Shown here: piece by piece, positions 9,275 to 48,874 of the stretch
Layout: the number at the start of each line of letters is the position of its first letter
Numbering within the stretch: the first letter of the stretch is position 1
The notes under the pieces: generated by a model
Told to the model about the DNA's origin: nothing
Databases searched by the model: none
Seen by the model: the letters and a program-made list of their open reading frames with translations, nothing else
Program-made: the position numbers and the translations under genes
Virus record (IMG/VR): IMGVR_UViG_3300048591_000212
Reading direction: 5' to 3' (one strand)
From: a virus
Taxonomy: Duplodnaviria; Heunggongvirae; Uroviricota; Caudoviricetes
DNA length: 64,000 nt

Positions 9275-9311
9275 TTTCTTTTTTGATTCTCCCTCTCAGG
9301 TATTTATGATA

Positions 9312-13391: not shown

Positions 13392-13471
13392 TAGAGATTA
13401 TTTATTTTCGCTGTCCAGTAAATGTTGTAGTTTATCTTTTCTAACATAATATGTGTTACCGTCCGGTCTTT

Positions 13472-14011
13472 CTACCATAGCTCCATTCGACCCAACACTA
13501 TATATGACACCTTTACCGTATTCATCATGAGTATATTCTTTCCCAATGAGAACATTTTATATTTTCGAAAATCGTCCTTGACTGCATCCGGTCTATACTT
13601 AGTCCAAAATTCATAGCCGTCATCAGAAAGAACGGAAGAGGGGTAAAGTTGTTGGCCTATATGTTTTTCGATGTGGTGATAGAGTTGGTATGCAACACCT
13701 TTTCCTCTATATTCTGGGTTTACAACAGACTTGAACATTGACGGTTTATCGTGTGCATGATTAATATCCGTTTTCATCCAAACCGCCGCACCAGCCACCC
13801 TTCCTTTGTAATATGCCTTAAATGGTTTTGGATCTTTTGGGTGTGGTCGTATACTTACTTTTATATGGTGTGGTTTCAGAATCAATTCTTCGTCCACACT
13901 AGATTCGAAAATGTCCTCTTCTTCAAAACCATATTCTTTCTTCAGTTTTTCGAGGTAATCTAAACCAGTTGGCTCTGAAGTGTTCTCTAATATATGTCTT
14001 AAATGGTTCAT
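13472..14011 (-). CDS. GNAT-family acetyltransferase-like protein with N-terminal MNHLRHILE peptide
   Basis: Motif-A-like YRGKGVAYQLY; N-terminus shared with the two upstream paralogs; start overlaps upstream stop (TAATG). Confidence 0.6.
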   Translation of the reverse strand: MNHLRHILENTSEPTGLDYLEKLKKEYGFEEEDIFESSVDEELILKPHHIKVSIRPHPKDPKPFKAYYKGRVAGAAVWMKTDINHAHDKPSMFKSVVNPEYRGKGVAYQLYHHIEKHIGQQLYPSSVLSDDGYEFWTKYRPDAVKDDFRKYKMFSLGKNILMMNTVKVSYIVLGRMELW

Positions 14012-15078
14012 TAATAGTAACTCCGAGAACTTCTATTTGTCGCCAACCATTCTATGTGCATTGCCTTTGGCGATGGATTTTTTATGTATTTGTAAACCTT
14101 ATAATCTTTGGAAACGGCAACAATTTGGGCTTTCTCTGTTGGATTCTCTATAAATCTAATGGCAGAAGGTTCATCATTAACTGCTTCCACTTGAACGTCA
14201 TTGCTCGGATTTTGAATATATTTAATCGAAAATCCGTTTCGTTTGACCGCTTCCAATTTCACTGCCTCTGTTGGATTTCTAATTAGACTAATCGACATTC
14301 CTTTTTTTATTGTTTCCATTTGTAGTTCTTCGGTGGGATTTGGAACAATATTTATTGCCATATACTTTTTGTTTTTCGGAATAAATGTAGAGAATATGTA
14401 ATCGAGGATATAAGGATGTGTGTCATTCAAAACATCAGGATCGATATCATTGTCCGCTTCATCCTTCAGGTCTGGTGGTGCCAATAGTCCAGTCACATAA
14501 GAAAGCTGATATTTTTCGCCAATACGATTCTTTCTTTTTGGAATAAAAATTACCAATTCATCAAACTCTTCTTCTCCTGCATATTCCACAAACTTATTGT
14601 CATTTCTGGCTGCGGTACACCATCGAGTTCCCTGTCCAAAGTAACAGGCAGAATCTTTATCCAGAATAGAAATAACTTTCATGTTTTCGTCATCCAGAAG
14701 AATCTTATATTTTCCTTTATTCGTTTCTTTTTTTTGTTCTGAAGTATCATAATCATTCAGAATTTTTTCGAGATCATCCAGAGTTCTAATTCTTCCGATA
14801 TCGGAGTGCTCTGGTTTCAATTTGTTTCTTTTCTTTAGGAGGATATATTTCTCTAAGAAAACTTTTCCTTTTGATACCAAATCTTCCACTTTAGTCCCGC
14901 GCTGGAATGATCTAACCATCCAAGACACATAACCCTTATTTTTCGATGGATCAATTTCTTCCATCTTGCTCCAGAGTTCATCCTTGGTGATATTTTCCTG
15001 TTCCAGTCTGGCATCCAATTCTGGACCAAATCCGGCCTTAGTTTTTGATTCTGATAATATATGTCTTAAATAGTTCAT
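14011..15078 (-). CDS. MNYLRHIL-family protein (355 aa); conserved Cys/Trp motif and C-terminal DUF4116-like tandem repeats
   Basis: Paralog of 16988..17977; motif ILDKDSACYFGQGTRWCTAARN; repeats IxNP(S/T)Exxq(l/v)xAV x5; ATGA overlap with gp6-like stop. Confidence 0.65.
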   Translation of the reverse strand: MNYLRHILSESKTKAGFGPELDARLEQENITKDELWSKMEEIDPSKNKGYVSWMVRSFQRGTKVEDLVSKGKVFLEKYILLKKRNKLKPEHSDIGRIRTLDDLEKILNDYDTSEQKKETNKGKYKILLDDENMKVISILDKDSACYFGQGTRWCTAARNDNKFVEYAGEEEFDELVIFIPKRKNRIGEKYQLSYVTGLLAPPDLKDEADNDIDPDVLNDTHPYILDYIFSTFIPKNKKYMAINIVPNPTEELQMETIKKGMSISLIRNPTEAVKLEAVKRNGFSIKYIQNPSNDVQVEAVNDEPSAIRFIENPTEKAQIVAVSKDYKVYKYIKNPSPKAMHIEWLATNRSSRSYY

Positions 15079-16907
15079 ATAATCTCGATCTGGGAGTCTA
15101 CTGAGATATCATCTTCGGAAATTGTCAGAATAGTATTCTGAAATGATCTTACATCAAACGTGGCTGGTTCTACCGTGATGACCAATTTGTCTCCAACATA
15201 CAGACTATTTATGTCGATGTTGTCGATATTTCCTCGTCCAGAATTATAGTTAATCATTCCCACTCCCGGCCTTAGAATTCTTTCTCCGGTTACGGTAGTA
15301 TTGTACAGATCAATATTTCCTTCACCGTCGTCTCTGAAGAATAGATTATAGTTATCTTCCTGCGGTAATGTTGAATCATTAATCGTGAATTTGTTGCTCA
15401 CTAGGGTTCCCGGCATAACCGAATTCACAAAATTGATCTCAATAAAGGTCGGATCAATAAAGGAAATATCGAATTCCTTTTCCAGCTTAATGCGAGTCAC
15501 GTTTGACAGAATAGCCGCATCAACCGAGTCAATCTCCTTGACCAGCTTCGAGAATCTCAGGACCGAATCGAACGAGTTTATGCTGTTCTCACAGAAGCCC
15601 AGAATAGCCGTCCGAACATTTGTTTTCAGAAAATTCGTGCTGTCATTTGTCAGATTTGAGTTATACTTAAATACCGTGTCAATTAGAACATTTACATAGG
15701 ACGGATCAACGAATTCTGGAATGATCGTAACCAGACTTCGGCTTTGAATAGCCGTTCGAATATTTGATTTCTCAAATTCCGTCAAAGTCAAATTACCCTT
15801 TGGCTTGATTGAGATGAAGACTTTTCCGTAGAATGGAGGATCATTATCCTGTCCCCCCCAGACCTTCATTGAATCAATATTCGGATAGACTGACTCCACC
15901 TGAAAAATAAAGTCGTCTTCGGTTACGGTTCGGTACTGAGAGGCATAGTGTCTCGGAGCCTTCAAACGAATCGACTCAATGGACTCAGCAGCCGAGCCAC
16001 CATCAATTCTCTCCAGAAGAGTAATTCCGGCATTGATTTGGGAATTGGTTAGCTGTAGGGAATCCAGACCTGATTCCGAAAAGGCGATATTCTGGGAACC
16101 ATTTACTTCATTTGTGTCTGTGACCAGATAATTAACGACCACGACATTTCCCGGTTCGGGAGCCTTACCAATAACATTGTCTCCGAAGTAGATTTCCATG
16201 AAGCCATTATTCTTTTCCTGAATAAAGAATACCGTGGAAGTCGATTCAATATCCACGAAGTTTAGGGCATTGGTGTACTTTGTAAAATTGTTGGCTGTTG
16301 GCGTGGCATAGACCAGAACCTCAATTGTGGCGGCATCAATATTCTGATTTTCAAGAATGAATCTGCGAGTTTCAAGAGTAGTTGAATTGATTGAAAATCT
16401 CTTTTGGACAAATGCTCCCTGAGTCAGAGTAATATTTGAAAAAGAGTAGGTAAAGGAATTTGAATCCGTAGGAACTCTGGTTGCGGTATAGTCCTGAATG
16501 GGATAAAACGAATAGCTGGTATTATCCACAATCGTCTCGAATCTGTCGGTTCTCTTTAGAAGAATCTGGTTTGGGGCAACCTGAGTATCCGGCACCGTGA
16601 GGGAAATATTGATATTGGCCTTGGCTCCGACAGCCGAGCGAGGAGTATAACCTAAAGATTTCGCATGAGAGATAACCGAATCCCTAAGAATAGCCGTGTC
16701 CACAAACATCTCATTTGCTACCATGTTCAGGTAGTAGGCATTGTATTGAGTATTGTAAGAAAGAAGATTAATTAGAACCGAAAGAGACGATCCCTCGAAA
16801 TTATAGTCAGAGAATTCTGAGCTATTGTTTCGAAGATAATTCTTGAAGTTTTCTTTTATCTGGGCGAAGTCCAGACCAGCAATTATTAGATTGGTATTTG
16901 TTGACAT
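15075..16907 (-). CDS. baseplate wedge protein, gp6-like (Baseplate_J family)
   Basis: N-terminus FAQIKENFKNYLRNNSSEFSDYNFEGSSLSVLINLLSYNTQYNAYYLN matches the conserved T4 gp6 N-terminal pattern; 610 aa. Confidence 0.8.
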   Translation of the reverse strand: MSTNTNLIIAGLDFAQIKENFKNYLRNNSSEFSDYNFEGSSLSVLINLLSYNTQYNAYYLNMVANEMFVDTAILRDSVISHAKSLGYTPRSAVGAKANINISLTVPDTQVAPNQILLKRTDRFETIVDNTSYSFYPIQDYTATRVPTDSNSFTYSFSNITLTQGAFVQKRFSINSTTLETRRFILENQNIDAATIEVLVYATPTANNFTKYTNALNFVDIESTSTVFFIQEKNNGFMEIYFGDNVIGKAPEPGNVVVVNYLVTDTNEVNGSQNIAFSESGLDSLQLTNSQINAGITLLERIDGGSAAESIESIRLKAPRHYASQYRTVTEDDFIFQVESVYPNIDSMKVWGGQDNDPPFYGKVFISIKPKGNLTLTEFEKSNIRTAIQSRSLVTIIPEFVDPSYVNVLIDTVFKYNSNLTNDSTNFLKTNVRTAILGFCENSINSFDSVLRFSKLVKEIDSVDAAILSNVTRIKLEKEFDISFIDPTFIEINFVNSVMPGTLVSNKFTINDSTLPQEDNYNLFFRDDGEGNIDLYNTTVTGERILRPGVGMINYNSGRGNIDNIDINSLYVGDKLVITVEPATFDVRSFQNTILTISEDDISVDSQIEII

Positions 16908-16914
16908 ACTTAGT

Positions 16915-16922
16915 TATTTATA
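16915..16922 (-). promoter_or_regulatory. T4-late-type promoter box TATAAATA 7 nt upstream of gp6-like ATG
   Basis: Minus strand TATAAATAactaagtATG; 80-nt intergenic region lacks an SD. Confidence 0.45.
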
Positions 16923-16987
16923 ATCATATCCAATCTGTTTCATGATTCCATAAAACTGTTCTGGAGTTTTCTGTTTTTTTGAGGACA

Positions 16988-17977
16988 TCATTTACCAGCC
17001 GCCTTTCCTTTTAATTCTCTTATTAGTTTCTTTACGTTTTCGGTTGGATTTTTGATTAACGAAAATGCATGAATGTTTTCTCGAACAGCAGCCAACTGTA
17101 ATTTTTCAGGTGGATTTATAATATCTGAAATTGCCATTCCATCCGTTTCAACGGCAATTAATTGTAATTTCTCTGATGGATTTTGAATATGCTTAAATGA
17201 TATAGGGCTTTCCCGAACAGCAGCTATTTGTTCATCCTCCGTCGCGTTACTATCAAACCCTATGAAATTAAGTCTTCCTCTTTCTGGAATTGTCGGAAGA
17301 ATATATCTTTCAATATATTTTCGTGCGAGTTCTGCATTAGTAGCTTTCTCGTCTTTTTCGTTATTAAACTGAATATCTTCATACCAATGAGAAAAATACA
17401 ACTGATACTTTTCTCCGGGGTATTTCGGTTTTTTTGGAATAAAAACAAAGAGTCTTCCTTCTTCGCTTGAATAGTAATCATACATATTATTGTTTTTAGC
17501 TGCTGTACACCATTGAGTTCCTCGACCGTAATAGCAAGCAGAATCTTTGTCCAGAATTTCAATTACTCTCATATTCGAATCATTAACTAATTCTATATAT
17601 TCTCCTTTGTTCGTGGGAACCGAAGATGGTCCTTCTGGATAATCCGTTCTTAGTATGGATTCCAGATCAGTTAACTTTTGAAAACGTCCAATATCAGAAT
17701 GTTCTGGTTTCAGTTTCTTCTTCAATTTCAATTGTTCAAATCGTTCAAGAGAATCCTTGCCTCTTGAAAGCAAGTCTTCAATCTTGGAGCCGAATTGAAA
17801 TGCCTTCACTAGCCAGTTAACATACTGTTTATTTTTGGTTGGATCGGCTTCTTCCATTTTTTTCCAAAGTTCGTCTTTCGAAATATTTTCTTGTTCTAGG
17901 CGGGCATCCATCTTGGAACCAAATCCGGCCTGAGATTTTGTTCTGTCGTATTCGAATAGGTGTCTTAAATAATTCAT
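16988..17977 (-). CDS. MNYLRHLFE-family protein (329 aa), paralog of 14011..15078
   Basis: Shared N-terminal 60-aa domain, motif ILDKDSACYYGRGTQWCTAAKN, C-terminal IxNPxE repeats; ATGA overlap with gp25-like stop. Confidence 0.65.
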   Translation of the reverse strand: MNYLRHLFEYDRTKSQAGFGSKMDARLEQENISKDELWKKMEEADPTKNKQYVNWLVKAFQFGSKIEDLLSRGKDSLERFEQLKLKKKLKPEHSDIGRFQKLTDLESILRTDYPEGPSSVPTNKGEYIELVNDSNMRVIEILDKDSACYYGRGTQWCTAAKNNNMYDYYSSEEGRLFVFIPKKPKYPGEKYQLYFSHWYEDIQFNNEKDEKATNAELARKYIERYILPTIPERGRLNFIGFDSNATEDEQIAAVRESPISFKHIQNPSEKLQLIAVETDGMAISDIINPPEKLQLAAVRENIHAFSLIKNPTENVKKLIRELKGKAAGK

Positions 17978-18387
17978 CTCACTCTCTCTAAAATAAGATT
18001 AAAGGAAACCAACTGATCTGGAATATTCTCAAAGTAATACACAATCTTAATATCATAGGCATTGGTATTCGGAATTGTTACTTCGACATCAATCACGCTC
18101 ACTCTGGGTTCGAAGTTCTCGATTGTCTCGATGATATAATTTTTCAGAAGAACCCGGTTATATGGAGTATCATTTTCAAAGAGAAAGTTTCGAACATTCG
18201 AGCCAATTGACGGCTGAAATGGCACATCAAAAAAATTCATCAGGACCAGATTCTTGATGGCCTTCTTAATGGCCTCCTGATTGGTCTTTTTGAAGATGTC
18301 TCCGGTTACTGGGTTTTTAGTAAATCCCAAATCAAAGTCCTTATAGACTACCGGAGTTGTTGGAGTTTTTTCTTTTTTTAGGGACAT
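17974..18387 (-). CDS. baseplate wedge protein, gp25-like (GPW_gp25 lysozyme-like fold)
   Basis: 137 aa; conserved pattern ...RNFLFEN...ENFEPRVSVIDVEV... parallels T4 gp25 (LFEN, EPRI motifs). Confidence 0.75.
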   Translation of the reverse strand: MSLKKEKTPTTPVVYKDFDLGFTKNPVTGDIFKKTNQEAIKKAIKNLVLMNFFDVPFQPSIGSNVRNFLFENDTPYNRVLLKNYIIETIENFEPRVSVIDVEVTIPNTNAYDIKIVYYFENIPDQLVSFNLILERVR

Positions 18388-18390
18388 TTG

Positions 18391-19644
18391 TTATTTCAGT
18401 TCTTCCTTTACCGCCACATAAGGTCCATAGGGTCTTGGATATTGTCTGGATTTGGTGGAGTCATCAGGCTTATTTATCATAACTCCTTGCGGCTGAGGAG
18501 GTTTCGGAATTACCACACCAAGCCCGCCAGCAACCGAGGATCTTAGGGACATATCGATGCCGGGATTAGAAGTAACAGAAGTTCCTTTTAGGGCCACAAT
18601 CTTCGCGGCCCCCACTGTAGTATTATTTCCAGACTTGATTTCTACGTCCTCTTCTCCATAAAGTTTCAGCTTTCCCTTGGCAGAAATCTCCACATCCTTT
18701 CCAGCAGTCAGAGTACAATTTTCTCCAACAGAAATTGTGGCATTTCCCTTAATCTGAACATTACAATTATTATTGACGATGACATTAAATGGTCCATCAA
18801 TTGTTAGATTAAATCGATTCTGAACATATTCATACTTTTCTTCCAGAGTAATCTTGTACGAATTACCAACAATCTTTTCAACCTTTACTCCATCTGGATA
18901 AATTTCTGAGAATGTTCCTGAACGATGATACTGGTGAAGCCTCTCGACGCCGCGAGTATCATCTATCTCAAAAATATGGCCCGATTCCGATTCCAGAACA
19001 TGATTATAGGGATAGGAAGAATCATAAGGAGTTTCCGGCTCATCCCAGACATCTCCTTCGGCAGTCGGTACGGCAAATACTCTGGAACCCTTTTTAATCT
19101 GAACAATGGTGTCCTGAATTTTTTCATCATTTCGGGCCAGACGATTCGTGTCCGGTTCTCCAATAATATTTCCAAATGGATGATTCTGCCGAGGCCACAA
19201 TTCTCCTGTCTCTGGAGAAGGATCTTCTTCGGTTAAAATTGCTCCGGTGCCGTCTTCTCGGTATTCTTTCTTTTTCAATTTGCGAGGATTTCTGGATAAT
19301 TCTTTTCGAGGATCAAGAAAGCCCTCTCGAATATTCCGAGGAAAGGCATACTCGGAAGGAATTCCACCAATCGTTCCAAGAATCATTGGCTCCTGAGAAT
19401 CGACTCCATCCCTAAAAAAACCGACAACCCATGATCCTTCTACCGGACCCATTGGAGTCTGACCGATTCCATTTACCGAAGAACTCTGAACCGGAGAAAC
19501 AGGCCAAGCCCAAGGAAGTTCATCTGTTGGAATAAACCTTTTATTTTCGGTATGAGAACCAAGAACTCTTACCCGGCACCGACCCAACATTAAAGGATCA
19601 AGCCGACTTTCTACAACACCAATAAAGAATTTCCATTCAATCAT
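18391..19644 (-). CDS. baseplate central spike, gp5-like or VgrG-like (OB-fold N-domain, beta-helix C-terminus)
   Basis: N-terminus GRCRVRVLGSHTENKRFIPTDELPWAWP...GSWVVGFFRDGDSQEPMILGTIGG typical of gp5 or gp27-associated spike; C-terminal repetitive beta-helix segment. Confidence 0.75.
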   Translation of the reverse strand: MIEWKFFIGVVESRLDPLMLGRCRVRVLGSHTENKRFIPTDELPWAWPVSPVQSSSVNGIGQTPMGPVEGSWVVGFFRDGVDSQEPMILGTIGGIPSEYAFPRNIREGFLDPRKELSRNPRKLKKKEYREDGTGAILTEEDPSPETGELWPRQNHPFGNIIGEPDTNRLARNDEKIQDTIVQIKKGSRVFAVPTAEGDVWDEPETPYDSSYPYNHVLESESGHIFEIDDTRGVERLHQYHRSGTFSEIYPDGVKVEKIVGNSYKITLEEKYEYVQNRFNLTIDGPFNVIVNNNCNVQIKGNATISVGENCTLTAGKDVEISAKGKLKLYGEEDVEIKSGNNTTVGAAKIVALKGTSVTSNPGIDMSLRSSVAGGLGVVIPKPPQPQGVMINKPDDSTKSRQYPRPYGPYVAVKEELK

Positions 19645-19645
19645 A

Positions 19646-20992
19646 TTAGGAATAAATCTCCGATTCCATAAGTGGATTCACAAAAAGAGTGTCCTTGGAA
19701 AGTTCCAGAGTCATCGAATATACACCAAAATTCGGAGCCTCGGTTGTGATGATGTGCCGAACACAGGTAATCAAAAACTTACCTCTGTAGTATTTATCCA
19801 AATATTCATTAGAATTCACGTCTGCCGAATCCTTTGGAGAAGTAATCTCCAGATTAATCACGTCCCCGACACTAAGAGAAGGATCTGCCGGAATAGTCAC
19901 ATTGATTTTCACATTATTCAATTGCTGAATCTGGGATTTTCGGAAAGGAATAAATCTTGAGGAATCCTTGTCCTGAAAGGTTCCGTCATAAAGAGAATTA
20001 TTGTAGGTATAGACTGTCCTGTTTGATTCTGGTTTTTGTGTAAACTTCGTGGTCAGTTTTGATACCAGTCGCCCTTCATCAGAAAGATGTCTCAGTTTTG
20101 GATAGGTTTCGAGATAATTAAATGAAATCTCATCGGTTTTCTTATTCAAAATATCCCACTGAAGAATATGATTGGCATACATTCCAGTCTTGATGTTATC
20201 GATGATATTGAAGGTCTTCGAAAAGGAATAGGCATTAATTCTTTCGGCTGAGTCGTCGGCATTTGGAGTTCGGGCCAAATCAATGATATTTGCAATCGAA
20301 GTTTTTAGAGTCTTCACTGAAGGCTTTTCGTATAGTTTTTCCAATGGCACGAAATGGAATGTGGACTGAAGGGCCGAACGAAAATTGATCGTTTCAAAGA
20401 AAAGATAAGAAGCACCCAGATAATTTGGAGAAATGGACTTGGAGGCCAGCCAATTAATCGCGGCAAATGGATTTAGGTGAGGGATGATGATATTCTTTGG
20501 TCTGTCTGTCTCCTCAAAATTAATTCTCTTTCGAGTCTTGAGATCATTAAAAAGAATGTCTGCCGTGATTGCCGAATACTTCTTGTCTCGGTAGGATTTT
20601 GAAATTCTAGTAGTCTGGTCCTCAAAGAATTCTGGAGTCACTAGATTCAAGACAGTGGCCTGTTTCTTCGTGTTCACCAAAAATCGGTTACTGATGTTAT
20701 AGACATGAAAGACCAGCTTCAGAGTCTTTCGATTTTTCTTTTCCTGAATGGTAATATGAATTTCTTCATTTCCGATAATCGGGCCGACTGTGTGAAACTT
20801 ATCAATTGGTGTCGAGGCGATATTATGAATCTCATTCAGAATCAAAGTTCCGTGAATACAATTAAGAAAAATGTCCTCAACCAATTCAAATGATGAATAA
20901 TACTCCAGAAGATCAAGCCACTGAGGTTCTGATGTTCTTCGGTGCGACTTCAGCCTTAATTCCAAAATTTCTAGTCCTTGGGATATTGCCAT
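19646..20992 (-). CDS. baseplate hub-like structural protein (448 aa), hypothetical
   Basis: Immediately upstream of and coupled to the spike gene (position of a gp27-like hub); no motif recognised. Confidence 0.5.
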   Translation of the reverse strand: MAISQGLEILELRLKSHRRTSEPQWLDLLEYYSSFELVEDIFLNCIHGTLILNEIHNIASTPIDKFHTVGPIIGNEEIHITIQEKKNRKTLKLVFHVYNISNRFLVNTKKQATVLNLVTPEFFEDQTTRISKSYRDKKYSAITADILFNDLKTRKRINFEETDRPKNIIIPHLNPFAAINWLASKSISPNYLGASYLFFETINFRSALQSTFHFVPLEKLYEKPSVKTLKTSIANIIDLARTPNADDSAERINAYSFSKTFNIIDNIKTGMYANHILQWDILNKKTDEISFNYLETYPKLRHLSDEGRLVSKLTTKFTQKPESNRTVYTYNNSLYDGTFQDKDSSRFIPFRKSQIQQLNNVKINVTIPADPSLSVGDVINLEITSPKDSADVNSNEYLDKYYRGKFLITCVRHIITTEAPNFGVYSMTLELSKDTLFVNPLMESEIYS

Positions 20993-20997
20993 CTTTT

Positions 20998-21780
20998 TTA
21001 GATACTCTTTAGCTCATTCTTGAAAGCATTTACGAAATCCTGAAGCAATTCCGGCTTCAGAACCCGAATGATTCTTTTATTCTGATTCTCGATTACTTCT
21101 TCGTCATACATTGATCGGCGGAATCTTCTCTGATCCTCGGCAATGAGGGACCATGTATCGATATCAGTTTCCATAAATTCCTTTTCGTCCACATGATGCT
21201 TCATGTAATATTTCACGAATGGAGGATGAATTTTCGCCACATCATTTTGCCCATCAGCCAGTTCATCTTCCAGAATTACCGAAAAGGAATAATTTGAAAT
21301 ATAATCTATTGTGTAGATTCCATTATACTTATTGCTGGATGAAAACCAGACGAAGGCTCGGCGTTGGTCCATAAACCCATGAGTATCAATTGAGGTAATC
21401 GTGCAAACATTTCCAGAAATTACATAAGAGGCATCAAATGGGTCCGAGAAGTTCTGAATATCCTGAAGAGATCCACCATACTTGTTGATGACATATTTCT
21501 GAAATTCTCTGGAATTCAAAGGCAAGTCCCATAAAGGATCTATTAGAGAATTCATATAGAGAATAATCCAGTAGTAATATGGGCTACCATAGAGTTTGTC
21601 ACTGACTGTTTCCAGTGTCTCAAATTCATTCATGGCATATTCATAATAATTTGAGGAATCAATGACTGAATCAGTCCGAAGGACGACTCTCTTGAATATA
21701 TCCGAAACAACTGTTTTCTTGCTGGCCCCCGGATTCAGTAGATCAGGATAGAGTAGATATTGTAATTCTGAAAAATACAT
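20998..21780 (-). CDS. hypothetical virion or baseplate assembly protein (260 aa)
   Basis: In late operon, TAATG overlap with upstream gene. Confidence 0.5.
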   Translation of the reverse strand: MYFSELQYLLYPDLLNPGASKKTVVSDIFKRVVLRTDSVIDSSNYYEYAMNEFETLETVSDKLYGSPYYYWIILYMNSLIDPLWDLPLNSREFQKYVINKYGGSLQDIQNFSDPFDASYVISGNVCTITSIDTHGFMDQRRAFVWFSSSNKYNGIYTIDYISNYSFSVILEDELADGQNDVAKIHPPFVKYYMKHHVDEKEFMETDIDTWSLIAEDQRRFRRSMYDEEVIENQNKRIIRVLKPELLQDFVNAFKNELKSI

Positions 21781-22721
21781 TAGAATCCTCGGTTAATTGA
21801 CTCTTTCGTGTGAACCACGGTTTCTCTAAATTTCAGGGCCAGATCGATCTCAACTGGCTGACCGTCAGTAAAGGTATTAAATTGATTCTTCTGACCAGAG
21901 TAATTCACATTCATGTCTTCCAAATAGCACGAAGAAATCTTATTCAACATGACATTTTCAACGGCCTTTCCGCCTTGGGATCGCCAGTAGGTAATCACGA
22001 ACAGAGAAGGAAACTTAAATTCCTTTCCATTGACAGCCAATTCTGGGTGCATCTGAAATCGAAACTCTTTCAGAATATTCTGAATTGTTCGGGACTCGTT
22101 TTGGTTTCTGGGAACAAGCCGGAAATTATAGTCAAAGGTTCTCATTTTCATATTCTTGAATAGCTGTTCGGAAACAGGATTATAGGCCGATCCTCTTTTT
22201 CCTAATTGCAGGGCAAAGATTTCGGTTGCACTCAAGGCACCAGCTACGCTCAATAGGGCCGACTTTGCTATGTCTCCTGATCGCTGCCACAGATGACTCA
22301 GGGACTCCTTTCCCACTCCCAACAAATCGACTCCTTCGGCCTGAATATAGTCTCTCATAAGACCCTGATCAATTTGCTGTAAATCTGCTGAATAGTTCAC
22401 CTTTACTTCATCTGGCATGTACAGAATAATATTTGAATCAGAAACTCTTCGATAGGTTCCTTGTGAAGACAGCCGAGGCAGAGTATACTGGTCAACAATT
22501 CGGGAATTTACTCCGTCATCAATGTCCACCACGGAACCGTCTGTGTTCCGAATTGTCCGAACCGAAGTGAACTGTTCGGTATCCGAAGCCAGCCGAACAG
22601 CCGAGAATATCATAAAATGAAAGGCATCATTATCTTTATTATTGTTGGTGCCAGTTTCTCGGACATAGGTATTTTGTCCCAAGTCATTTGGGAACACATG
22701 GGTTCTTGGTGCTGTTGCCAT
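21780..22721 (-). CDS. hypothetical late protein (314 aa; start re-assigned to MATAPRTHVFPNDLG)
   Basis: Track ORF 21780..22820 trimmed: the internal ATG at ~22721 lies 7 nt downstream of a T4-late-type TATAAATA box with no SD (predicted leaderless). Confidence 0.55.
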   Translation of the reverse strand: MATAPRTHVFPNDLGQNTYVRETGTNNNKDNDAFHFMIFSAVRLASDTEQFTSVRTIRNTDGSVVDIDDGVNSRIVDQYTLPRLSSQGTYRRVSDSNIILYMPDEVKVNYSADLQQIDQGLMRDYIQAEGVDLLGVGKESLSHLWQRSGDIAKSALLSVAGALSATEIFALQLGKRGSAYNPVSEQLFKNMKMRTFDYNFRLVPRNQNESRTIQNILKEFRFQMHPELAVNGKEFKFPSLFVITYWRSQGGKAVENVMLNKISSCYLEDMNVNYSGQKNQFNTFTDGQPVEIDLALKFRETVVHTKESINRGF

Positions 22722-22738
22722 ATAAGTATATTTATATG
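22721..22738. promoter_or_regulatory. divergent overlapping late-type promoters: TATAAATA (minus) and TATAAGTA (plus), each 7 nt from an ATG
   Basis: Near-palindrome CATATAAGTATATTTATATG; intergenic distance only 14 nt; no SD on either side. Confidence 0.5.
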
Positions 22739-23206
22739 AGACGAAGAGGCGGCTATATTCAAGGAACATTTCGGCCAAAAAATCCGGCAAAGTACCGAGG
22801 CAATCTGAATAATATAACATTTCGGAGTTCTTGGGAACTTCGTCTTTTTAATTATCTGGACCAGAATTCAAGTGTTCTCGAATGGAATTCCGAAGAGGTT
22901 GTTATTCCATATTTTTTTCCTCTTGATGGAAAATGGCACCGATACTTCGTTGACGCCTATGCAAAATTCCGAACTCGGTCTGGCGAAATTCAGAAATATC
23001 TGATAGAGGTAAAGCCAGAAAAGGAGACTCTGAATCCGGCCCTGAAGCCCAGAAAAAGACGGACAAAGTATTCTCGACTGGAAGAGGAAACCTATGCCAA
23101 AAATTCCTGTAAGTGGAAGGCCGCGACCGAGGCGGCGGAACTAAATGGCATGAAGTTTATTATTCTTACCGAAAATGAACTCTATAACAAGAAGAGACAT
23201 AAATAA
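22736..23206 (+). CDS. conserved small basic late protein (156 aa), possible head or tail completion-type protein
   Basis: Track ORF 22688..23206 trimmed to ATG ~22736, which lies 7 nt after a TATAAGTA late-like box; motifs NITFRSSWELRLFNYL, WHRYFVDAYAKF; it reminds me of a T4-like phage protein family I cannot name with confidence. Confidence 0.55.
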   Translation: MRRRGGYIQGTFRPKNPAKYRGNLNNITFRSSWELRLFNYLDQNSSVLEWNSEEVVIPYFFPLDGKWHRYFVDAYAKFRTRSGEIQKYLIEVKPEKETLNPALKPRKRRTKYSRLEEETYAKNSCKWKAATEAAELNGMKFIILTENELYNKKRHK

Positions 23207-39394: not shown

Positions 39395-39484
39395 TGGTCC
39401 TGCGGTGCGGAATCGAACCGCATCCTGGGTCTTATCTGGACTAAGGGCTTATAAGGCCCCCTGCTCTCCATGAGCTACCGCAGG
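39395..39484 (-). tRNA. tRNA with anticodon UAU (Ile-like) and ~21-nt extra arm (90 nt incl. CCA)
   Basis: Acceptor CCTGCGG/CCGCAGG, anticodon stem GGGGC/GCCCU loop CUUAUAA, T-arm TGCGGTTCGATTCCGCA, ACCA end; long variable region is unusual for an Ile tRNA. Confidence 0.6.
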
Positions 39485-43044: not shown

Positions 43045-43689
43045 TTACTCCACGATGGCCTTGTATTCTTCAAAGTCTTCGGGAGTCATTCTCATTTCGG
43101 CCCCACATGGACACTTAGGAAATCCGGCAGTCAGACTCTTGACCGTCGCCTTGACTTCATAATCGCCTTCGAATGTTCCAGAAAGAACACAATTCGGAGA
43201 CTCGACTCGCTTTTCTGGGCAGTGAAGTTTGAAGGTATTCTTCTTATTCTTACGCTCCTTTTCCTTCAGAATGATACGAGAATTAGGAAACTCCCCAAGC
43301 TCCCCAACCACTTTTTCAATAAATCGATTGAGTTCATCACCGGGCGCAGCATGAATCGCCTTACCTTCGAGACCAATTTTCTTCATGCCGTCCTTAAACA
43401 GCTTACCATGTTTCGCTCCATCCGGCAACACAGCATGAAGAAGCTCATGAGCAAGAGTTCCAAGAACCTCAACCGCATTTGAATGATGTGCAGGAGAGAT
43501 GAAGATCTGTTTCACTCCATTTTCGGTTGCGGTGGAGTGCCAACACTCCCCCATCGTCCGCTTCGGATTTTTGGCTCCGAATCCACAGGCAACTTGAATT
43601 GCCGGAATAGTAAACTGTTTACTCTCAAAAACCGGACGCAGCTTATCGACCGCCGCATACAAATACTCTTCTCGCGTTTCGAATGGCAT
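43045..43689 (-). CDS. SprT-like HExxH zinc metallopeptidase with C-terminal zinc ribbon
   Basis: LAHELLHAV plus CPEKR...CPCGAEM. Confidence 0.5.
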   Translation of the reverse strand: MPFETREEYLYAAVDKLRPVFESKQFTIPAIQVACGFGAKNPKRTMGECWHSTATENGVKQIFISPAHHSNAVEVLGTLAHELLHAVLPDGAKHGKLFKDGMKKIGLEGKAIHAAPGDELNRFIEKVVGELGEFPNSRIILKEKERKNKKNTFKLHCPEKRVESPNCVLSGTFEGDYEVKATVKSLTAGFPKCPCGAEMRMTPEDFEEYKAIVE

Positions 43690-43896: not shown

Positions 43897-44916
43897 CTAG
43901 TAAACGATATTGAAGACGCGAAAGAAATCGCGATCCATTTCACAATAATCTTCCTCATTGTGGTGCATATAAACAATGGAATCAGTTGTGTAGATTCTAA
44001 GAAATTTTTCTTCCAATTCTCCAAGGCCCTTGGAAAAGATTCCGTGAGTTACGAACAGGGAGGCCCTCAAAGTTCGGGCGAAAGCTCCCGGCATTACAAT
44101 ATTCGCCTCCTCCAATTTTTCATTAATTCCGATAAACGTCCCACCACCGTCACAGATGTCATCCACAATTAAAATTGAGCCGTTTTCATCGAATTCGGTT
44201 TTATCGGGAATCTCAAACCCAAGAAATTTCCCGGTTGCCGCGTCCCGATTCTTCTTAGCAAATAGCTTGCTGATCTTAATTGTTCCAGTATTTCCAAAAA
44301 TCTCATTTGGAATCGAATATCGTCTTGATGCTCCCTCATCGGGAAACAGGATATTAATAGATCTGGTTCCGGCAGAACTTTTGGCTTTATAGTACTCATG
44401 AATTTTAACCTCTTCAAGAATCGCCGCCATGATGTACGGTTCGGCGGAAAGCTCCTGAACCTCGATCAATCCAGCGCCAGAACGATTCGCCTCTTCCGCG
44501 ATCCAATTCCTTGTCTTGGGGTTATGATTATCCAAAGTGATAATCTTGCTCACACCAAAGGTCTTACAAATTCCAACCAACTGATAAATGAAAACATGAA
44601 GACCATGGCAATCTCCCTCAACGAACACTCGGTCGGCCCGACTAAACGGAAGATAAGGAATAAACAGTTCAATCTGCCTTTTTCCATTAAATGCCCTATT
44701 ATAATTGATAATATTCAAAACCTGACCCAAAATGATCAGATCATCACCGGAAGTATATTCCATACGAATAACGACTCGTTCGGCGGCTTTCAGGCTAGGA
44801 AGATACTTTACATCAGAAATACGGGTCTGAATTTCTCCAGCCGGATACCGAAAGCTCTTAAAATACCCCGGCTTCTCGGAACCAACCTTGGGAAGATTAA
44901 TAGTCATTGTATTCAT
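43897..44916 (-). CDS. ribose-phosphate pyrophosphokinase (PRPP synthetase)-like protein; candidate Prs or ADP-ribose pyrophosphokinase (Adps)
   Basis: PRPP-binding loop ILIVDDICDGGGT and N-terminal Pribosyltran_N-like region; track start 44991 overlaps the NAMPT gene, so trimmed to MNTMTINL directly after its stop. Confidence 0.7.
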   Translation of the reverse strand: MNTMTINLPKVGSEKPGYFKSFRYPAGEIQTRISDVKYLPSLKAAERVVIRMEYTSGDDLIILGQVLNIINYNRAFNGKRQIELFIPYLPFSRADRVFVEGDCHGLHVFIYQLVGICKTFGVSKIITLDNHNPKTRNWIAEEANRSGAGLIEVQELSAEPYIMAAILEEVKIHEYYKAKSSAGTRSINILFPDEGASRRYSIPNEIFGNTGTIKISKLFAKKNRDAATGKFLGFEIPDKTEFDENGSILIVDDICDGGGTFIGINEKLEEANIVMPGAFARTLRASLFVTHGIFSKGLGELEEKFLRIYTTDSIVYMHHNEEDYCEMDRDFFRVFNIVY

Positions 44917-44917
44917 T

Positions 44918-47900
44918 TTAACGATTCTCCAGATTCTCTTTGATTTGATCAAAAGTAATATAGTTTGTCTCAGAACCAATAAGCTCATCAAAAACTAGAT
45001 CATAAGCACAGTTTTCCAACTCAGAAACAGTAGCATTCTGCTTCACAAAAAGTTCACCATTTTCGTTCCGATATACTGCCGGAATTCCTCGAATCGACTT
45101 TTTGGAATTTTTCTTATCATCAGTAATCGGATCTTTGAAGATTGGCTGAATGGTGTCACCGTTCACTTCGATTGCGGTCGCCTTCATTGCGAAACCAAAG
45201 GTGTCCCGCGTCACATATTCATAAGTAAAGGAACCAATTCCGAAGACCATATTATAGGGACTCAACTTCAATTCATTTACCATTCGATCCAGAATGGCAT
45301 CCGCCCGCTCATAAGTGATGGCATCACCATAAATGACTCCAGCATTATTGATCATCGGAAGCCCGCCATCGACGCCCGGAGTAGTACCAAGAGCCTCAGC
45401 CAGAAGCCGAAGAACTCCCTTACGTTCATTCTCATTGGATGAATTCGGATCACCACAGACAATATTAACTGGATCGCCAGAATTACCAGAAACAACAACA
45501 CAGCCGTTTCGTCTGACCACGATCATGCCAGTATTAACCTGAACGCAATACACCTTTCCGGTATACGAAACAGCGGCTTTCTTAATACTTTGCCCACCAG
45601 AAGTAGACGTTTTGTTTATGTGAATCGTGTATACCTTAGAGAAGTAGGATTTTCTCGTATCGTCATATTCAGAAGAACACGTCCTATAGCCAGCCAAGGT
45701 AGCCAATAATTGAACGGCCTCGGCATTAATCTTAACGGTTGTATCGTATTTTATTCTATTTTCGCTCCTGATACAACTATCCCAATTGGACAATTCATCA
45801 ATAAATTCTTTGGCCCAGACGCCTGAAATGTCATTCAGCATATCAAAAACCCAAGCAAAAGTTTTTTGTGCATCATTTGGAAGAGTAACATAGAATTGGG
45901 TGTTTCTTGGACGAGCGGGTTCAACAGTTTCCTTATACTCGAAACCAGATTCAATCAATAATTTTCTCATGCGATCCACTTTTCGCTGTTTAGTGAAATT
46001 AAATCTCACCTTATTTTTCGGACCAGTCGTGTTGAACGAACCATCCGCCTGAAAAGCAATCAACAATCTTTCTTCCGAAGTAAGAGATTTCGGCTTGCCA
46101 ACCAAAACGCCAGAATGGATCATATCCTTCTCATAGAAGTATTTTATATTTTCTGCCTCTTTTACTTCTACTCCTCCGCGCCCATTTGTTCTGACCATAC
46201 GATGATTTGAAGTAACCAACAAATCGACGTGACTGTCGTTTCTGAAATGAATCATATCTTGTTCGGATTCCAGCTCCGATTCATAATAACGGATAGGCTT
46301 GGTGAAATTGATGGTCCCGTCTTGGTTATACTCTGCTACCAGATCCTCTTCATTTAAGTCCTTAAATAAAACAAAACCGCGATTAGTAAGGATTTCTGTT
46401 TTGTCATCATAACAATCCGGCCTGATCACGATCTTACCATTTCGATTCAAAATTGAATCCTTCAGTCGTGGAATATAATTTGTCAAAACTTTCCACAAAT
46501 CAAACGAATCAGAAACAATTGACACGATGCCTTCGGGGTAAACCTTATTGATCAGTCGGTCAAACATCTCAAATTCATCAACTTCTCCATTCGGAAGATA
46601 CTTGGCAGAACTTGTCATCACGCTATGTTCCGTGTTTCCTGAAATAGCAATGATGCCATTTCTCCGAACAACAATCATCTTCGAAGGAACAGAAACACAA
46701 TATACATAATCGTCATAATCAAACACTTCATTTATTATTCCATGACAGGTAACAACACTTTTATTCAAAGTAATTGTGATGCGGTGCATTGGATTTCTTT
46801 TATAATCTTCCCTCTTGTCAATGTACATGCTGACCTTAGTTTTACAATTACATAAAGTAGCCAAGCATTCAACAACTTCAACATTTAGTTGATTTGTTGA
46901 GGAGTAGATAATATGATTTTTTCTTCTGCTGCCGTCCCAATATTGCAACTCTTCAATAAAAGCTCGGCACCAAGATGACGACACTTCAACGATGTTAACC
47001 CAAGAGAAATCCTTCAGCAATTTTTCGGGTAAATTGATCCAAAAAGAATAATAACCATCTTTATATTTTGTCCAAGTGAAAACACAATCATCAATTTCCG
47101 ATAAAATCGACAACAATCTTTTGAACTTTCTTTCTTTCTTGAAAGAAAAACGAATCGGAAATTTTCCGCTCCTCTCCCCGGTATAATCTTCCGCATGTGA
47201 AGGATATGACCCATCTGCTTGAAAAGCAATCTTCAGCTTCTCCAATGGAGATAATGTTTCTTTCCCACCAATTTTATTTCCAGAAACAACAACTTTATTT
47301 TTTGTGTTATACACAGATTGAGAAGATGCTTCTTTCAGTTCAATTTTCCGGTCTTTATTTAAGAACACCAACTTATGATTTGGAGTAACACAAATATCTA
47401 TATAACGATGACCCTCTTTATAAAACCGATACATTTTTCCTTTATATCGATCCTTATAATATTTCGTCGGAGAAACAAACTCTATATTACCATCGATAGT
47501 ATATTGTGCAACCAGATCAGTTTCCAGTAAATCATCAAATTTCTTAAATCCTGAATTTGTCAACAATTCCGTTTCTTTATCAAAGCAAGCCGGAACCGAC
47601 CCACCACAAGAATATTCCGCACCATAGTATTCAACGGCACCCAAAATCGCCGGAATGGTGTCGGTTCCATTAAAAGAAAGAAGATGACCCATTCCAGACA
47701 TTACGGCATCTTCCAGACCCGACATGCCACGATACGAAAAATCATGTCCCTGCCATTTCGTGAAAGTTAGATCCTTTTCGCCAGAGAGAATCGCCCACTT
47801 CTCAAACAGTCTCTTGTACCGATCTGCGATGGTGGCAGAAGTCATTCCCTTCCAGAGCATATTAGAAATCATCGTTTCCAGATAGTTTGGAAGCCAGAAA

Positions 47901-48301
47901 GCCCACGGCTCAGTGTTATGAATCACAATCGACGGAATTCCGAGAGGTACCAGAGTACCTTCTGGAAGAGAATAAATCCGAATTGGCAATGCGCCATGAT
48001 GCCACAACTGTTCAATATGATCCGTCTTCGGATTAGCCACACCCAGAGTCGCGGAGATGATCTCACGATACTGCCGAAGAATATTTCTCAAGTCTTCAGT
48101 GAAAAATAATTCATCGAACATTTCCTCAATTCGACGAAGCACACACTGAACCCCAAAATGGACAATCTTATTCACGCCATCAATTCGGCTGGAACGGGGC
48201 GTCCAATTCGAGAAAACCGTGGTTACGTTTTCTGGATACTGCTGGACGTGTCCGACCTTATAAAAGTCGATCATGAAAATAGGATTAATTTCTTTCATCA
48301 T
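44918..48301 (-). CDS. nicotinamide phosphoribosyltransferase-like (NAMPT/NadV or Namat) precursor interrupted by two inteins; extein 498 aa
   Basis: N-terminal signature IDFYKVGHVQQYP (NAPRTase family); 1127 aa vs ~490 expected; two insertions beginning with Cys after ...GGSVPA and ...KIVIRPD and ending ...VVRRNG(I/C)xxxSGN followed by Thr or Ser. Confidence 0.8.
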   Translation of the reverse strand: MMKEINPIFMIDFYKVGHVQQYPENVTTVFSNWTPRSSRIDGVNKIVHFGVQCVLRRIEEMFDELFFTEDLRNILRQYREIISATLGVANPKTDHIEQLWHHGALPIRIYSLPEGTLVPLGIPSIVIHNTEPWAFWLPNYLETMISNMLWKGMTSATIADRYKRLFEKWAILSGEKDLTFTKWQGHDFSYRGMSGLEDAVMSGMGHLLSFNGTDTIPAILGAVEYYGAEYSCGGSVPACFDKETELLTNSGFKKFDDLLETDLVAQYTIDGNIEFVSPTKYYKDRYKGKMYRFYKEGHRYIDICVTPNHKLVFLNKDRKIELKEASSQSVYNTKNKVVVSGNKIGGKETLSPLEKLKIAFQADGSYPSHAEDYTGERSGKFPIRFSFKKERKFKRLLSILSEIDDCVFTWTKYKDGYYSFWINLPEKLLKDFSWVNIVEVSSSWCRAFIEELQYWDGSRRKNHIIYSSTNQLNVEVVECLATLCNCKTKVSMYIDKREDYKRNPMHRITITLNKSVVTCHGIINEVFDYDDYVYCVSVPSKMIVVRRNGIIAISGNTEHSVMTSSAKYLPNGEVDEFEMFDRLINKVYPEGIVSIVSDSFDLWKVLTNYIPRLKDSILNRNGKIVIRPDCYDDKTEILTNRGFVLFKDLNEEDLVAEYNQDGTINFTKPIRYYESELESEQDMIHFRNDSHVDLLVTSNHRMVRTNGRGGVEVKEAENIKYFYEKDMIHSGVLVGKPKSLTSEERLLIAFQADGSFNTTGPKNKVRFNFTKQRKVDRMRKLLIESGFEYKETVEPARPRNTQFYVTLPNDAQKTFAWVFDMLNDISGVWAKEFIDELSNWDSCIRSENRIKYDTTVKINAEAVQLLATLAGYRTCSSEYDDTRKSYFSKVYTIHINKTSTSGGQSIKKAAVSYTGKVYCVQVNTGMIVVRRNGCVVVSGNSGDPVNIVCGDPNSSNENERKGVLRLLAEALGTTPGVDGGLPMINNAGVIYGDAITYERADAILDRMVNELKLSPYNMVFGIGSFTYEYVTRDTFGFAMKATAIEVNGDTIQPIFKDPITDDKKNSKKSIRGIPAVYRNENGELFVKQNATVSELENCAYDLVFDELIGSETNYITFDQIKENLENR
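45482..46414 (-). mobile_element. intein 2 (311 aa) with LAGLIDADG-type homing endonuclease domain, paralogous to intein 1
   Basis: Starts CYDDKTEILTNRG, contains LLIAFQADGSF, ends MIVVRRNGCVVVSGN | S. Confidence 0.7.
46634..47587 (-). mobile_element. intein 1 (318 aa) with LAGLIDADG-type homing endonuclease domain
   Basis: Starts CFDKETELLTNSG (Hint block A), contains LKIAFQADGSY (LAGLIDADG-like), ends MIVVRRNGIIAISGN | T. Confidence 0.7.
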
Positions 48302-48657
48302 TACTCCAAAATAATATTCATTCCATTAACTTCTCTATAGTCAATACAGATGAATTTCTCTTTTCCATTTACAATATAAGTGGGTCCAGCTTTCATATTC
48401 AGTGGAACCAAAACACTAAGAGGACGAGAAGAGGAGGGCGTGGTATATTCATCAACCAGAACAATCTTAAATAAGTTTAATATTCCGGAAATATTTGCGT
48501 AGGCTCGAACCTCTGCGTCTTCACGGACCTCATAAATCGTTCCCGTAAAGATTTGTCCAACGGAAACCTTAGACAAATCCATTCGGCGCTGGTCCACAAC
48601 TCTGATTTCATTACTCATCTTCGTCCTCTTCCTCTTCCTCATACCAGTCATCATCAT
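48301..48657 (-). CDS. hypothetical protein (118 aa)
   Basis: ORF track. Confidence 0.4.
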   Translation of the reverse strand: MMMTGMRKRKRTKMSNEIRVVDQRRMDLSKVSVGQIFTGTIYEVREDAEVRAYANISGILNLFKIVLVDEYTTPSSSRPLSVLVPLNMKAGPTYIVNGKEKFICIDYREVNGMNIILE

Positions 48658-48874
48658 CGTCTTCTTCGTCGTCGGGACCGAAGCCGCCGTTTACGCAATA
48701 AGAAGAAATCGTCGCCAGAAGATTATCATAGTCTCCACTCATGGCTTCGATTTTGACTTCATCAATTTCATCCGGTGTCCAACCAGCACGCTTTGCTTCT
48801 CGTTGAAATGCTCCCAGAATAGCAAAAGCATTTCCATCCATGCCGACAAGTTCAAGATTCACTTCGTTTTTCAT
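48611..48874 (-). CDS. small acidic protein (87 aa)
   Basis: ORF track; SD AAAGGTAATT before ATG; poly-acidic C-terminus. Confidence 0.4.
   Translation of the reverse strand: MKNEVNLELVGMDGNAFAILGAFQREAKRAGWTPDEIDEVKIEAMSGDYDNLLATISSYCVNGGFGPDDEEDDDDDWYEEEEEDEDE

Follow-up and report, generated by a model that had tools for sequence, protein, structure and literature searches.

A phage gene of the NAMPT family, most likely encoding Namat of the NARP1 pathway, carries two LAGLIDADG inteins of separate site-specific lineages

A stretch of 64,000 nucleotides from a virus (Caudoviricetes; IMG/VR record IMGVR_UViG_3300048591_000212), hereafter referred to as the window, contains a gene of the NAMPT family that is interrupted at two different sites by related LAGLIDADG inteins. 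The host gene most likely encodes Namat, the nicotinamide ADP-ribose transferase of the NARP1 pathway of NAD+ reconstitution. The reading that we hold, taken as a whole, to be very probable is that of a Namat precursor with two mobile inteins that would be excised with ligation of the exteins, would spread by homing, and would represent two old lineages combined in one gene. The presence of two such inteins had been proposed in a first-pass annotation of the bare sequence, and homology, fold, and catalytic residues agree on this point.

The precursor gene is located on the minus strand at positions 44918..48301, as are all further features described below on that strand, and comprises 1127 codons followed by a TAA stop. 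Its ATG overlaps the stop codon of the upstream gene (TAATG) and is preceded by GGAG, and the frame remains uninterrupted over 3.4 kb. Translation bore out the open reading frame (ORF) of 1127 amino acids given in the first-pass annotation, with a correction of the strand, since the plus strand of 44918..48301 contains many stops and was rejected as the coding strand. The residues quoted in that annotation were all present, namely, IDFYKVGHVQQYP at the N terminus, both Cys-initiated insertions, and their SGN-(T/S) ends. Extein 1 (amino acids 1-238, 47588..48301) contains the NAMPT_N domain, harbors within TPRSSR the equivalent of Arg40 of the Namat selectivity-clamp loop (48185-48187), and ends in ...GGSVPA, the final Ala of which aligns with the nicotinamide-binding Ala242 of SpβL1 Namat. 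Extein 2 (73 amino acids, TEHSVM...VIRPD, 46415..46633) holds the catalytic His in TEH, corresponding to His245 of SpβL1 Namat and His247 of the human enzyme, as well as an R-P-D motif equivalent to Arg306 and Asp308 of SpβL1 Namat. Extein 3 (187 amino acids, SGDPV...ENLENR, 44921..45481) carries the selectivity-clamp helix motif GSFTYEYVTRD (45203-45235). In silico deletion of residues 239-556 and 630-940 left 498 amino acids, as had been predicted, with the exteins joined at GGSVPA-TEHSVMTSSAK and IVIRPD-SGDPVNIVCGDPNSSNENER. When compared by HMMER with the NAMPT-family chains of the PDB, this spliced sequence aligned in one stretch that is gap-free over both junctions (E value of 5e-128), SVPA-TEHSVM and VIRPD-SGDPV matching column for column SIPATEHSVM and VIRPDSGDPV of the best PDB match. 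Such a contiguous alignment to NAMPT-family proteins was the check on which the first-pass annotation had made its proposal depend. The extein also aligns as a single piece to intein-less phage homologues, and the score of the Pfam NAPRTase model rises from 79 bits in two stretches with the insertions in place to 116 bits in a single stretch without them.

Intein 1 (site a) consists of 318 amino acids (residues 239-556, 46634..47587), runs from CFDKETELLT to IAISGN, and is followed by TEHSV, with Thr at the +1 position. Intein 2 (site b) consists of 311 amino acids (residues 630-940, 45482..46414), runs from CYDDKTEILT to VVVSGN, and is followed by SGDPV, with Ser at +1. The Hint blocks A, B, F, and G, a search for which had also been proposed, were found and are conserved in both insertions. 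In intein 1, block A (CFDKETELLT) is at 47558-47587, block B (VTPNH) at 47375-47389, LAGLIDADG motifs 1 (IAFQADGS) and 2 (FIEELQYWDG) at 47207-47230 and 46931-46960, and blocks F and G (VYCVSVPSKMIVVRRNGIIAISGN) at 46634-46705. The corresponding elements of intein 2 are block A (CYDDKTEILT, 46385-46414), block B (VTSNH, 46202-46216), LAGLIDADG motifs 1 (IAFQADGS, 46037-46060) and 2 (FIDELSNWDS, 45776-45805), and blocks F and G (VYCVQVNTGMIVVRRNGCVVVSGN, 45482-45553). The two inteins share 37% identity over their full length (BLASTP E value of 1e-60), far beyond chance, and a tblastn search with both of them detected no third copy in the window. The guanine-plus-cytosine (GC) content is 33.6% for intein 1, 45.5% and 39.7% for the exteins flanking it, and 40.6% for the whole window, from which intein 2 (39.5%) is not distinct.

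An AlphaFold2 model of intein 1, based on an alignment of 19 family sequences, had a mean predicted local distance difference test score (pLDDT) of 92.6 and a predicted template modeling score (pTM) of 0.91. In Foldseek searches, the whole model matched the inteins TliVMA, PhoVMA, PI-SceI, and PI-PfuI (E values of 9e-13 to 1e-7), its inserted domain matched I-DmoI and I-SceI, and its Hint part matched the AceL NrdHF intein (target TM score of 0.82) and the hedgehog autoprocessing domain. Intein 1 therefore has the fold of a Hint domain plus a LAGLIDADG endonuclease. For a survey of the family, 128 inteins were extracted by means of their junction motifs from 124 proteins, which comprised the window protein, the listed database matches, and four GenBank phage proteins. 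Cys1, T68-x-N-H71 of block B, and the terminal Asn are conserved in 100% of these inteins, and together with both LAGLIDADG Asp residues, the block F Cys, and the Gly of the terminal Gly-Asn, they form a set of residues that are 99 to 100% conserved and present in both window inteins. Overall identity among the 128 inteins is only 36 to 50% despite these near-invariant catalytic residues. Both window inteins thus combine Cys1, T-x-N-H, a terminal Asn, Thr (site a) or Ser (site b) at +1, the Hint fold, and extein continuity, and their IAFQADGS and F-x-x-E-L-x-x-W-D motifs, with both Asp residues, are those of a two-motif, single-chain LAGLIDADG endonuclease. This conservation pattern indicates that splicing and endonuclease functions are both under selection.

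The two inteins are inserted into the most conserved catalytic motifs of Namat. When positions were counted along the HMMER alignment with the residue numbers of SpβL1 Namat (PMC12774641), intein 1 was found to split PA/TEH between Ala242, which contacts nicotinamide, and Thr243, three residues N-terminal to the catalytic His245. Intein 2 splits RPD/SG between Asp308, which contacts ribose, and Ser309, two residues after Arg306, the mutation of which abolishes activity. Since both inteins lie within catalytic motifs, no active enzyme would be possible until both are spliced. At the DNA level, the 48-bp coding sequence of the fused site a is TCTTGTGGTGGGTCGGTTCCGGCT joined to ACGGAACATAGCGTGATGACAAGT at the insertion point, and that of the fused site b is GGTAAGATCGTGATCAGGCCGGAT joined to TCTGGCGATCCAGTTAATATTGTC. 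Only 16 of the 48 bases match in register, which is essentially background, and similarity of the homing sites was rejected as a route for switching sites, the only common element being CCGG-T 5' of the junctions. The six bases 5' of the insertion points on the coding strand are CCGGCT (47588-47593) and CCGGAT (46415-46420), a likeness that is probably a coincidence of Pro-Ala and Pro-Asp codons. A location in highly conserved catalytic motifs is typical for inteins.

The first-pass annotation had referred to the host gene as NAMPT-like and named NadV or Namat as references. Membership in the NAMPT family stands, and the clamp motif and gene neighborhood allow a more precise assignment, according to which the enzyme is most likely the Namat of the NARP1 anti-defense pathway and not a plain NAMPT or NadV. 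The best match of the spliced extein among solved structures, with the E value given above, is PDB 9W5X/9W5W, which is SpβL1 Namat (PMC12774641). The equivalents of Phe189, Asp215, Ala242, His245, Arg306, and Asp308, which belong to the catalytic core described for that enzyme (PMC12774641), are all aligned and identical to 9W5X in the HMMER alignment, and the exteins retain every NAD+/nicotinamide-contact residue that was checked against it. The published consensus of the Namat-specific clamp helix is GS-X-Φ1-X-Φ2-X-Φ3-TRD, in which X is aromatic and Φ2 is usually Gln or Asn. GSFTYEYVTRD fits it with F, Y, and Y as X, T as Φ1, E as Φ2, and V as Φ3, and the GSxxxxxxTRD motif is present in 111 of 123 intein-bearing exteins. 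The downstream neighbor is a gene of 339 amino acids (43897..44916), the ATG of which, at 44916, begins one base past the TAA of the Namat gene. It matches the phage Prs/Adps family phrog_619 (E value of 6e-53) and is the probable first enzyme of NARP1, as Namat adjoins 97% of the Adps-clade genes in the NARP1 study (Osterman et al., bioRxiv 2024.02.11.579819). It is on the clamp motif, the clamp-loop Arg, the adjoining phrog_619 gene, and this adjacency that the gene pair is read as NARP1.

Under the proposed mechanism, the phage Namat would be co-transcribed with the Adps-like kinase gene and would act as the nicotinamide ADP-ribose transferase of NARP1, with NAD+ as the expected product from ADPR, ATP, and nicotinamide. 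Each intein would excise itself from the 129-kDa precursor after translation and join its flanks, which would yield an active Namat of 56 kDa and free LAGLIDADG homing endonucleases of 37 and 36 kDa. The calculated masses are 129.0 kDa for the precursor, 56.2 kDa for the ligated Namat, and 37.2 and 35.7 kDa for the inteins, and intermediates that retain one intein would have 91.8 and 93.3 kDa. In a co-infection, each endonuclease would cleave, at the DNA level, its own site in a phage allele that has no intein, and the break would be repaired on the intein-bearing template, so that the intein is passed on. Splicing, endonuclease activity, and the preference for ADPR-PP over PRPP that sets a Namat apart from a Nampt are what we infer, and several points weigh against this picture. 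Three residues typical of class 1 inteins, two of them in block F (Asp and His) and the third the penultimate His, are missing in the family. The Pfam models Intein_splicing and LAGLIDADG_3 score under their curated cutoffs (for LAGLIDADG_3, E value of 6.5e-4 for intein 2). Experimental evidence of splicing by a family member was sought in the papers on Pectobacterium phage CB7 (PMC7344957), which states that splicing was not tested, and on the Stab phages, which makes no mention of inteins. As regards the enzyme, the call of Namat versus Nampt is drawn only from sequence motifs and gene neighborhood, Φ2 is Glu where Gln or Asn is usual, a conservative departure, and the adjoining gene matches solved Prs structures only weakly (E value of 1e-5).

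The subthreshold Pfam scores and the missing residues, along with the GC content of intein 1 below that of its flanking exteins, as expected of a foreign element, could also be accommodated by decayed insertions that no longer splice, so that the NAMPT/Namat gene would be a disrupted, non-functional pseudogene, or, in a variant, only the endonucleases would matter and the enzyme would be dispensable. This appears quite improbable, given that the 3.4-kb frame is uninterrupted, that both inteins keep all family-invariant catalytic residues, and that the exteins keep the substrate contacts listed above. Moreover, efficient splicing with a penultimate Gly is known from a mycobacteriophage class 1 intein, and together with the AceL NrdHF intein, which is experimentally active with the same substitutions, this precedent implies that the odd residues need not mean decay. 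Splicing competence is argued from residue conservation and from this activity of AceL NrdHF. A further alternative concerns the origin of the arrangement, namely, that one intein recently copied itself, by duplication or ectopic transposition, into the second site of the same NAMPT gene. The two inteins are clearly homologous, have near-identical termini (MIVVRRNG...SGN), and are only 219 bp apart, all of which would be expected from such an event. However, the nearest neighbor of each of the 128 inteins occupies the same site, and a neighbor-joining tree separates site a from site b inteins perfectly, with mean identities of 48% and 50% within the sites compared with 36% for pairs from different sites. 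The intein closest to intein 1 is that at site a of protein P0004 (56%), and the one closest to intein 2 is that at site b of P0002 (64%), whereas their mutual identity in the same alignment is 38%. Both sites are, furthermore, singly occupied in distant Staphylococcus and Citrobacter phages, and the DNA of the two homing sites is dissimilar. Same-site neighbors and the split of the tree speak against a recent duplication within the gene, which was rejected on this basis and is the least probable of the alternatives considered here, to the point of being hardly credible. One change of site has to be assumed, but at an early time that preceded the diversification of the family. The term paralogous, used in the first-pass annotation, is hence appropriate in this deep sense and not in that of a duplication inside the gene. 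Inteins 1 and 2 are, as judged from the tree, ancient sister lineages, each tied to its own Namat site and mobile across a wide range of phage Namat genes, and the double-intein allele would have arisen by combination of the two through homing or recombination and not by in-place duplication. Proteins that are closest in their exteins are also closest in their inteins (P0002, extein 65% and intein b 64%; P0004, extein 60% and intein a 56%), and the divergence of the inteins is correlated with that of the exteins (r about 0.35-0.40), a pattern of inteins inherited largely with the gene, with occasional transfer.

A separate question, which concerns the splicing chemistry only and is compatible with the remainder of the proposed explanation, is whether these inteins follow the class 1 or the class 3 mechanism, the definitions of the latter being taken from Tori et al. 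2010, Kelley et al. 2016, and Hoffmann et al. 2020. Departing from canonical class 1 inteins, family members possess Cys at F:4 (99%; C297 in intein 1 and C290 in intein 2) and Gly at the penultimate position (100%), and they have no His at F:13 in block F. A single-sequence mini-intein search of the PDB sequences returned only spurious matches to ribosomal proteins. With a profile of the Hint halves, the only significant match was the AceL NrdHF intein (E value of 2.5e-6), in which TPNHRM aligns with SPNHRM and vyCvsvPtK with fhAlsvPGK, where A is the C124A replacement of the crystal; in the next match, the Mja KlbA intein, the F:4 Asp aligns with the block F Cys of the family. Experiments showed that AceL NrdHF splices by the class 3 mechanism (Hoffmann et al. 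2020, PMC7891396; PDB 6ZGQ). Its B:12 residue is Met, its F:4 residue Cys, and its penultimate residue Gly145, and it is devoid of both histidines, for which Arg69 at B:11 partly compensates (PMC7891396). B:12 is Met in 94% of the family, including intein 2, and Leu in intein 1; B:11 is Lys or Arg in the window inteins; and G:5 is Ser or Cys in the family, with Ser in the window inteins, but not Thr. Of the triplet at B:12, F:4, and G:5, which is W-C-T in class 3 inteins and M-C-T in the AceL NrdHF variant, the window inteins hence have the F:4 Cys and, in intein 2, the B:12 Met, but not the Thr at G:5. The exact Met-Cys-Thr triplet together with Cys1 and a penultimate Gly was detected in the NrdB intein of Vibrio phage C-ZP2022 (L007, OM319461.1, 21492-22490), which may be the closest contiguous, endonuclease-bearing relative of the split AceL NrdHF, both being in genes for the β subunit of ribonucleotide reductase (RNR).

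A class 1 mechanism with compensating residues is the default reading, Cys1 being present. A class 3 or hybrid class 1/class 3 relay, in which the block F Cys would form the branched thioester and Cys1 would not be the sole initiating nucleophile, is unlikely but deserves to be taken seriously, since the sole significant PDB match of the profile is a class 3 intein that shares the B:12 Met, the F:4 Cys, the penultimate Gly, and the missing block F His, since the nearly invariant block F Cys takes the place of the F:4 Asp of Mja KlbA, and since the related C-ZP2022 intein has the full triplet alongside Cys1; already in 2010, WCT inteins starting with Ser1 or Cys1 were flagged as needing to be tested (Tori et al. 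2010). On the other hand, Cys1 is needed for class 1 and is present in 128 of 128 inteins, whereas class 3 inteins normally lack an N-terminal Cys or Ser nucleophile and are operationally defined by the absence of the N-terminal Cys (Hoffmann et al. 2020, PMC7891396). In addition, G:5 is Ser or Cys here instead of Thr, and B:12 of intein 1 is neither Met nor Trp. The invariant Cys1 and the Ser or Cys at G:5 place the window inteins outside class 3 by the operational definitions. Somewhat more doubtful still is the proposition that both cysteines are catalytic, for example in a relay of the thioester from Cys1 to the F:4 Cys and on to the +1 Ser/Thr, in which case the family would bridge class 1 and class 3 splicing mechanistically and evolutionarily. 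If so, two neighboring cysteines could make splicing redox sensitive, in which case the maturation of Namat, an anti-defense enzyme, would be coupled to conditions in the infected cell.

Genes of this type are not confined to the window. A tblastn search of each intein against 50,697 GenBank phage records revealed that the closest relatives of both are in annotated NAMPT genes. Site a is singly occupied in Staphylococcus phages phiSNIID, Stab23, O1-102, B2-102, and T2-102 (45% identity to intein 1), and site b in Stab20, vB_SauM-T-SE-G1/G2, V1SA09, vB_Sau_Clo6, and Citrobacter phage Tr1 (about 41-42% identity to intein 2). Alignments confirmed identical junctions for site a in phiSNIID and Stab23 and for site b in T-SE-G1 and Citrobacter Tr1. 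In total, one of the two inteins is present in at least 11 GenBank phage records and uninterrupted homologues are present in about 2,000, so that the intein-bearing form is the minority state among isolates. More distant relatives of both inteins were found in phage genes for the α and β subunits of RNR, and the phage-borne intein family is also present in Namat, RNR α/β, PhoH-like, and thymidylate synthase genes. In addition, a collection of 5.8 billion proteins was searched with the intein-bearing precursor, and the best 120 matches, metagenomic homologues that all have 697 to 1124 amino acids, were classified by junction motif: 66 had an intein at site a only, 49 at site b only, and 3 at both, one was a fragment of the window protein, and one was unclassified. 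With the four GenBank phage proteins and the window protein added (n = 125), the numbers are 68 for site a only, 52 for site b only, 4 for both, and 1 unclassified, the site b only entry P0001 being an N-terminally cut copy of the window protein itself. As the query was the intein-bearing precursor, these counts illustrate that such genes are common and not what fraction of all Namat genes they represent.

The first-pass annotation had implied that intein-bearing NAMPT-like genes are novel, which does not hold in view of these 11 or more GenBank phages, the three other double-intein homologues, and two earlier records. A Hint insertion in the NAMPT gene of phage Clo6 was described in 2017 and likened to the RNR inteins of Romulus and Stau2 (Abatángelo et al., PMC5526547), and the GenBank record of Stab23 (LR215720 g198) notes a Hint domain in NAMPT; the word intein is absent from the paper on the Stab phages and from both NARP1 papers (bioRxiv 2024.02.11.579819; PMC12774641), and a literature search found no paper describing P0003, P0005, or P0006, the other double-intein proteins. 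Single-intein forms are thus published and other doubles are in public data, and what is new is another case of the rarer two-intein combination. Several inteins in one gene are well known, for example, in DnaB, RNR, and RNA polymerase genes. The NAMPT gene of Pectobacterium phage CB7 is reported to be split by an HNH endonuclease insertion, with no splicing at the mRNA level (PMC7344957). Different mobile elements, namely, inteins at two sites and HNH insertions, thus seem to have targeted phage NAMPT/Namat genes repeatedly. Several homologues (P0012, P0033, P0038, P0073, and L002, the NAMPT of Citrobacter Tr1) have an extra insertion of about 45 to 110 amino acids directly after SGDPV-x-I-x-CG, with a recurring ...YNRHDKTYYYID... 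motif and no intein ends, which has the appearance of an ordinary domain inserted close to the entrance of the active site.

The window as a whole belongs to a large phage with a contractile tail and contains T4-like genes for baseplate and hub as well as eight tRNA genes. Near-identical DNA was not found among the GenBank phages, where it has no close DNA relative, so that the phage itself is unsequenced as an isolate. The eight tRNA genes detected by ARAGORN (minus strand, 30914-55145; Thr-tgt, Gln-ttg, Arg-tct, Ile-tat, Ser-tga, Val-tac, Cys-gca, and Leu-tag) lie dispersed between small ORFs in the surroundings of the Namat locus. Of these, tRNA-Ile(tat) (39395-39484) is unusual in having 90 nt and its anticodon at position 32, and either a miscall or an atypical tRNA may account for this. 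An ORF of 1976 amino acids (minus strand, 1077-7007) matches phrog_358 (E value of 0) and phrog_877, large families of unknown function, and is probably a giant virion or tail-fiber protein, because it adjoins T4-like baseplate wedge, hub, and tail-lysozyme genes (7016-22820). An ORF of 214 amino acids (minus strand, 43045-43689; phrog_6361, unknown function, E value of 4e-31) follows shortly downstream of the Adps-like gene; with its HExxH motif (LAHELLHAV) and a Cys-rich stretch at the C terminus, it resembles a small SprT-like zinc metallopeptidase. An ORF of 87 amino acids (minus strand, 48611-48874; phrog_1933, unknown function) has an extremely acidic C-terminal tail, DDEEDDDDDWYEEEEEDEDE.

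The two-intein arrangement itself is ordinary, and the main use of these findings is in the annotation and expression of NARP1 genes. The 1127-residue NAMPT is better read as a Namat of 498 amino acids plus two mobile elements, and the adjoining ribose-phosphate pyrophosphokinase as a probable Adps, a pair that would mark the phage as carrying the NARP1 counter-defense against bacterial immunity based on NAD+ depletion. Since Namat occurs as an intein-bearing precursor in at least 11 GenBank phages and in clearly more than a hundred homologues from metagenomes, inteins must be allowed for when such genes are expressed from constructs, clustered by length, or used to predict activity. In addition, a family with Cys1 and an active site like that of AceL NrdHF is a ready test set for the relationship between class 1 and class 3.

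Among known systems, the SpβL1 Namat of NARP1 (bioRxiv 2024.02.11.579819; Lan et al. 2026, PMC12774641) resembles the window enzyme in its core residues, clamp motif, and adjoining Adps-like gene but has no inteins, whereas the window Namat has two, and the gene order in the window, Namat followed by Adps, differs from that of SpβL1/NARP1. The Clo6-type genes share with it the insertion point of site b (VIRPD/C...GN/SGDPV), the intein family of intein 2, and a host gene adjoining Prs/Adps; they have one intein only, a length of 796 to 885 amino acids, exteins that are about 40% identical to those of the window, and Staphylococcus or Citrobacter hosts. Likewise, the phiSNIID-type genes share the insertion point of intein 1 (SIPA/C...SGN/TEHSVM) but, with 812 amino acids, possess a single intein compared with two in the window gene. 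The double-intein Namat homologues from metagenomes, P0003 (GCA_044343285.1, an NCBI assembly, 1114 amino acids), P0005 (1124 amino acids), and P0006 (1094 amino acids, N-terminally cut), agree with the window protein in both junctions and in the lineages of their two inteins but are only 43 to 46% identical to it overall. The inteins in phage RNR genes, namely, those in NrdA of Romulus, Remus, and Stau2, in NrdB of phiTE, CB7, and Vibrio C-ZP2022, and in NrdA of T5-like Salmonella and Shigella phages, have the same catalytic signature and LAGLIDADG domain and are 31 to 36% identical over their full length, but differ in host genes and insertion sites. Finally, AceL NrdHF, the best match of the family in sequence and the best mini-intein match in fold, is also of phage origin and located in a nucleotide-metabolism gene, and it shares the x-P-N-H-R-M block B, the C-x-x-x-P-G-K block F, the penultimate Gly, and the absence of a block F His. 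Its first residue is Ala1, its G:5 residue is Thr, and it is a naturally split intein accompanied by a free-standing GIY-YIG endonuclease, whereas the window inteins begin with Cys1, are contiguous, contain an inserted LAGLIDADG domain, and have Ser at G:5.

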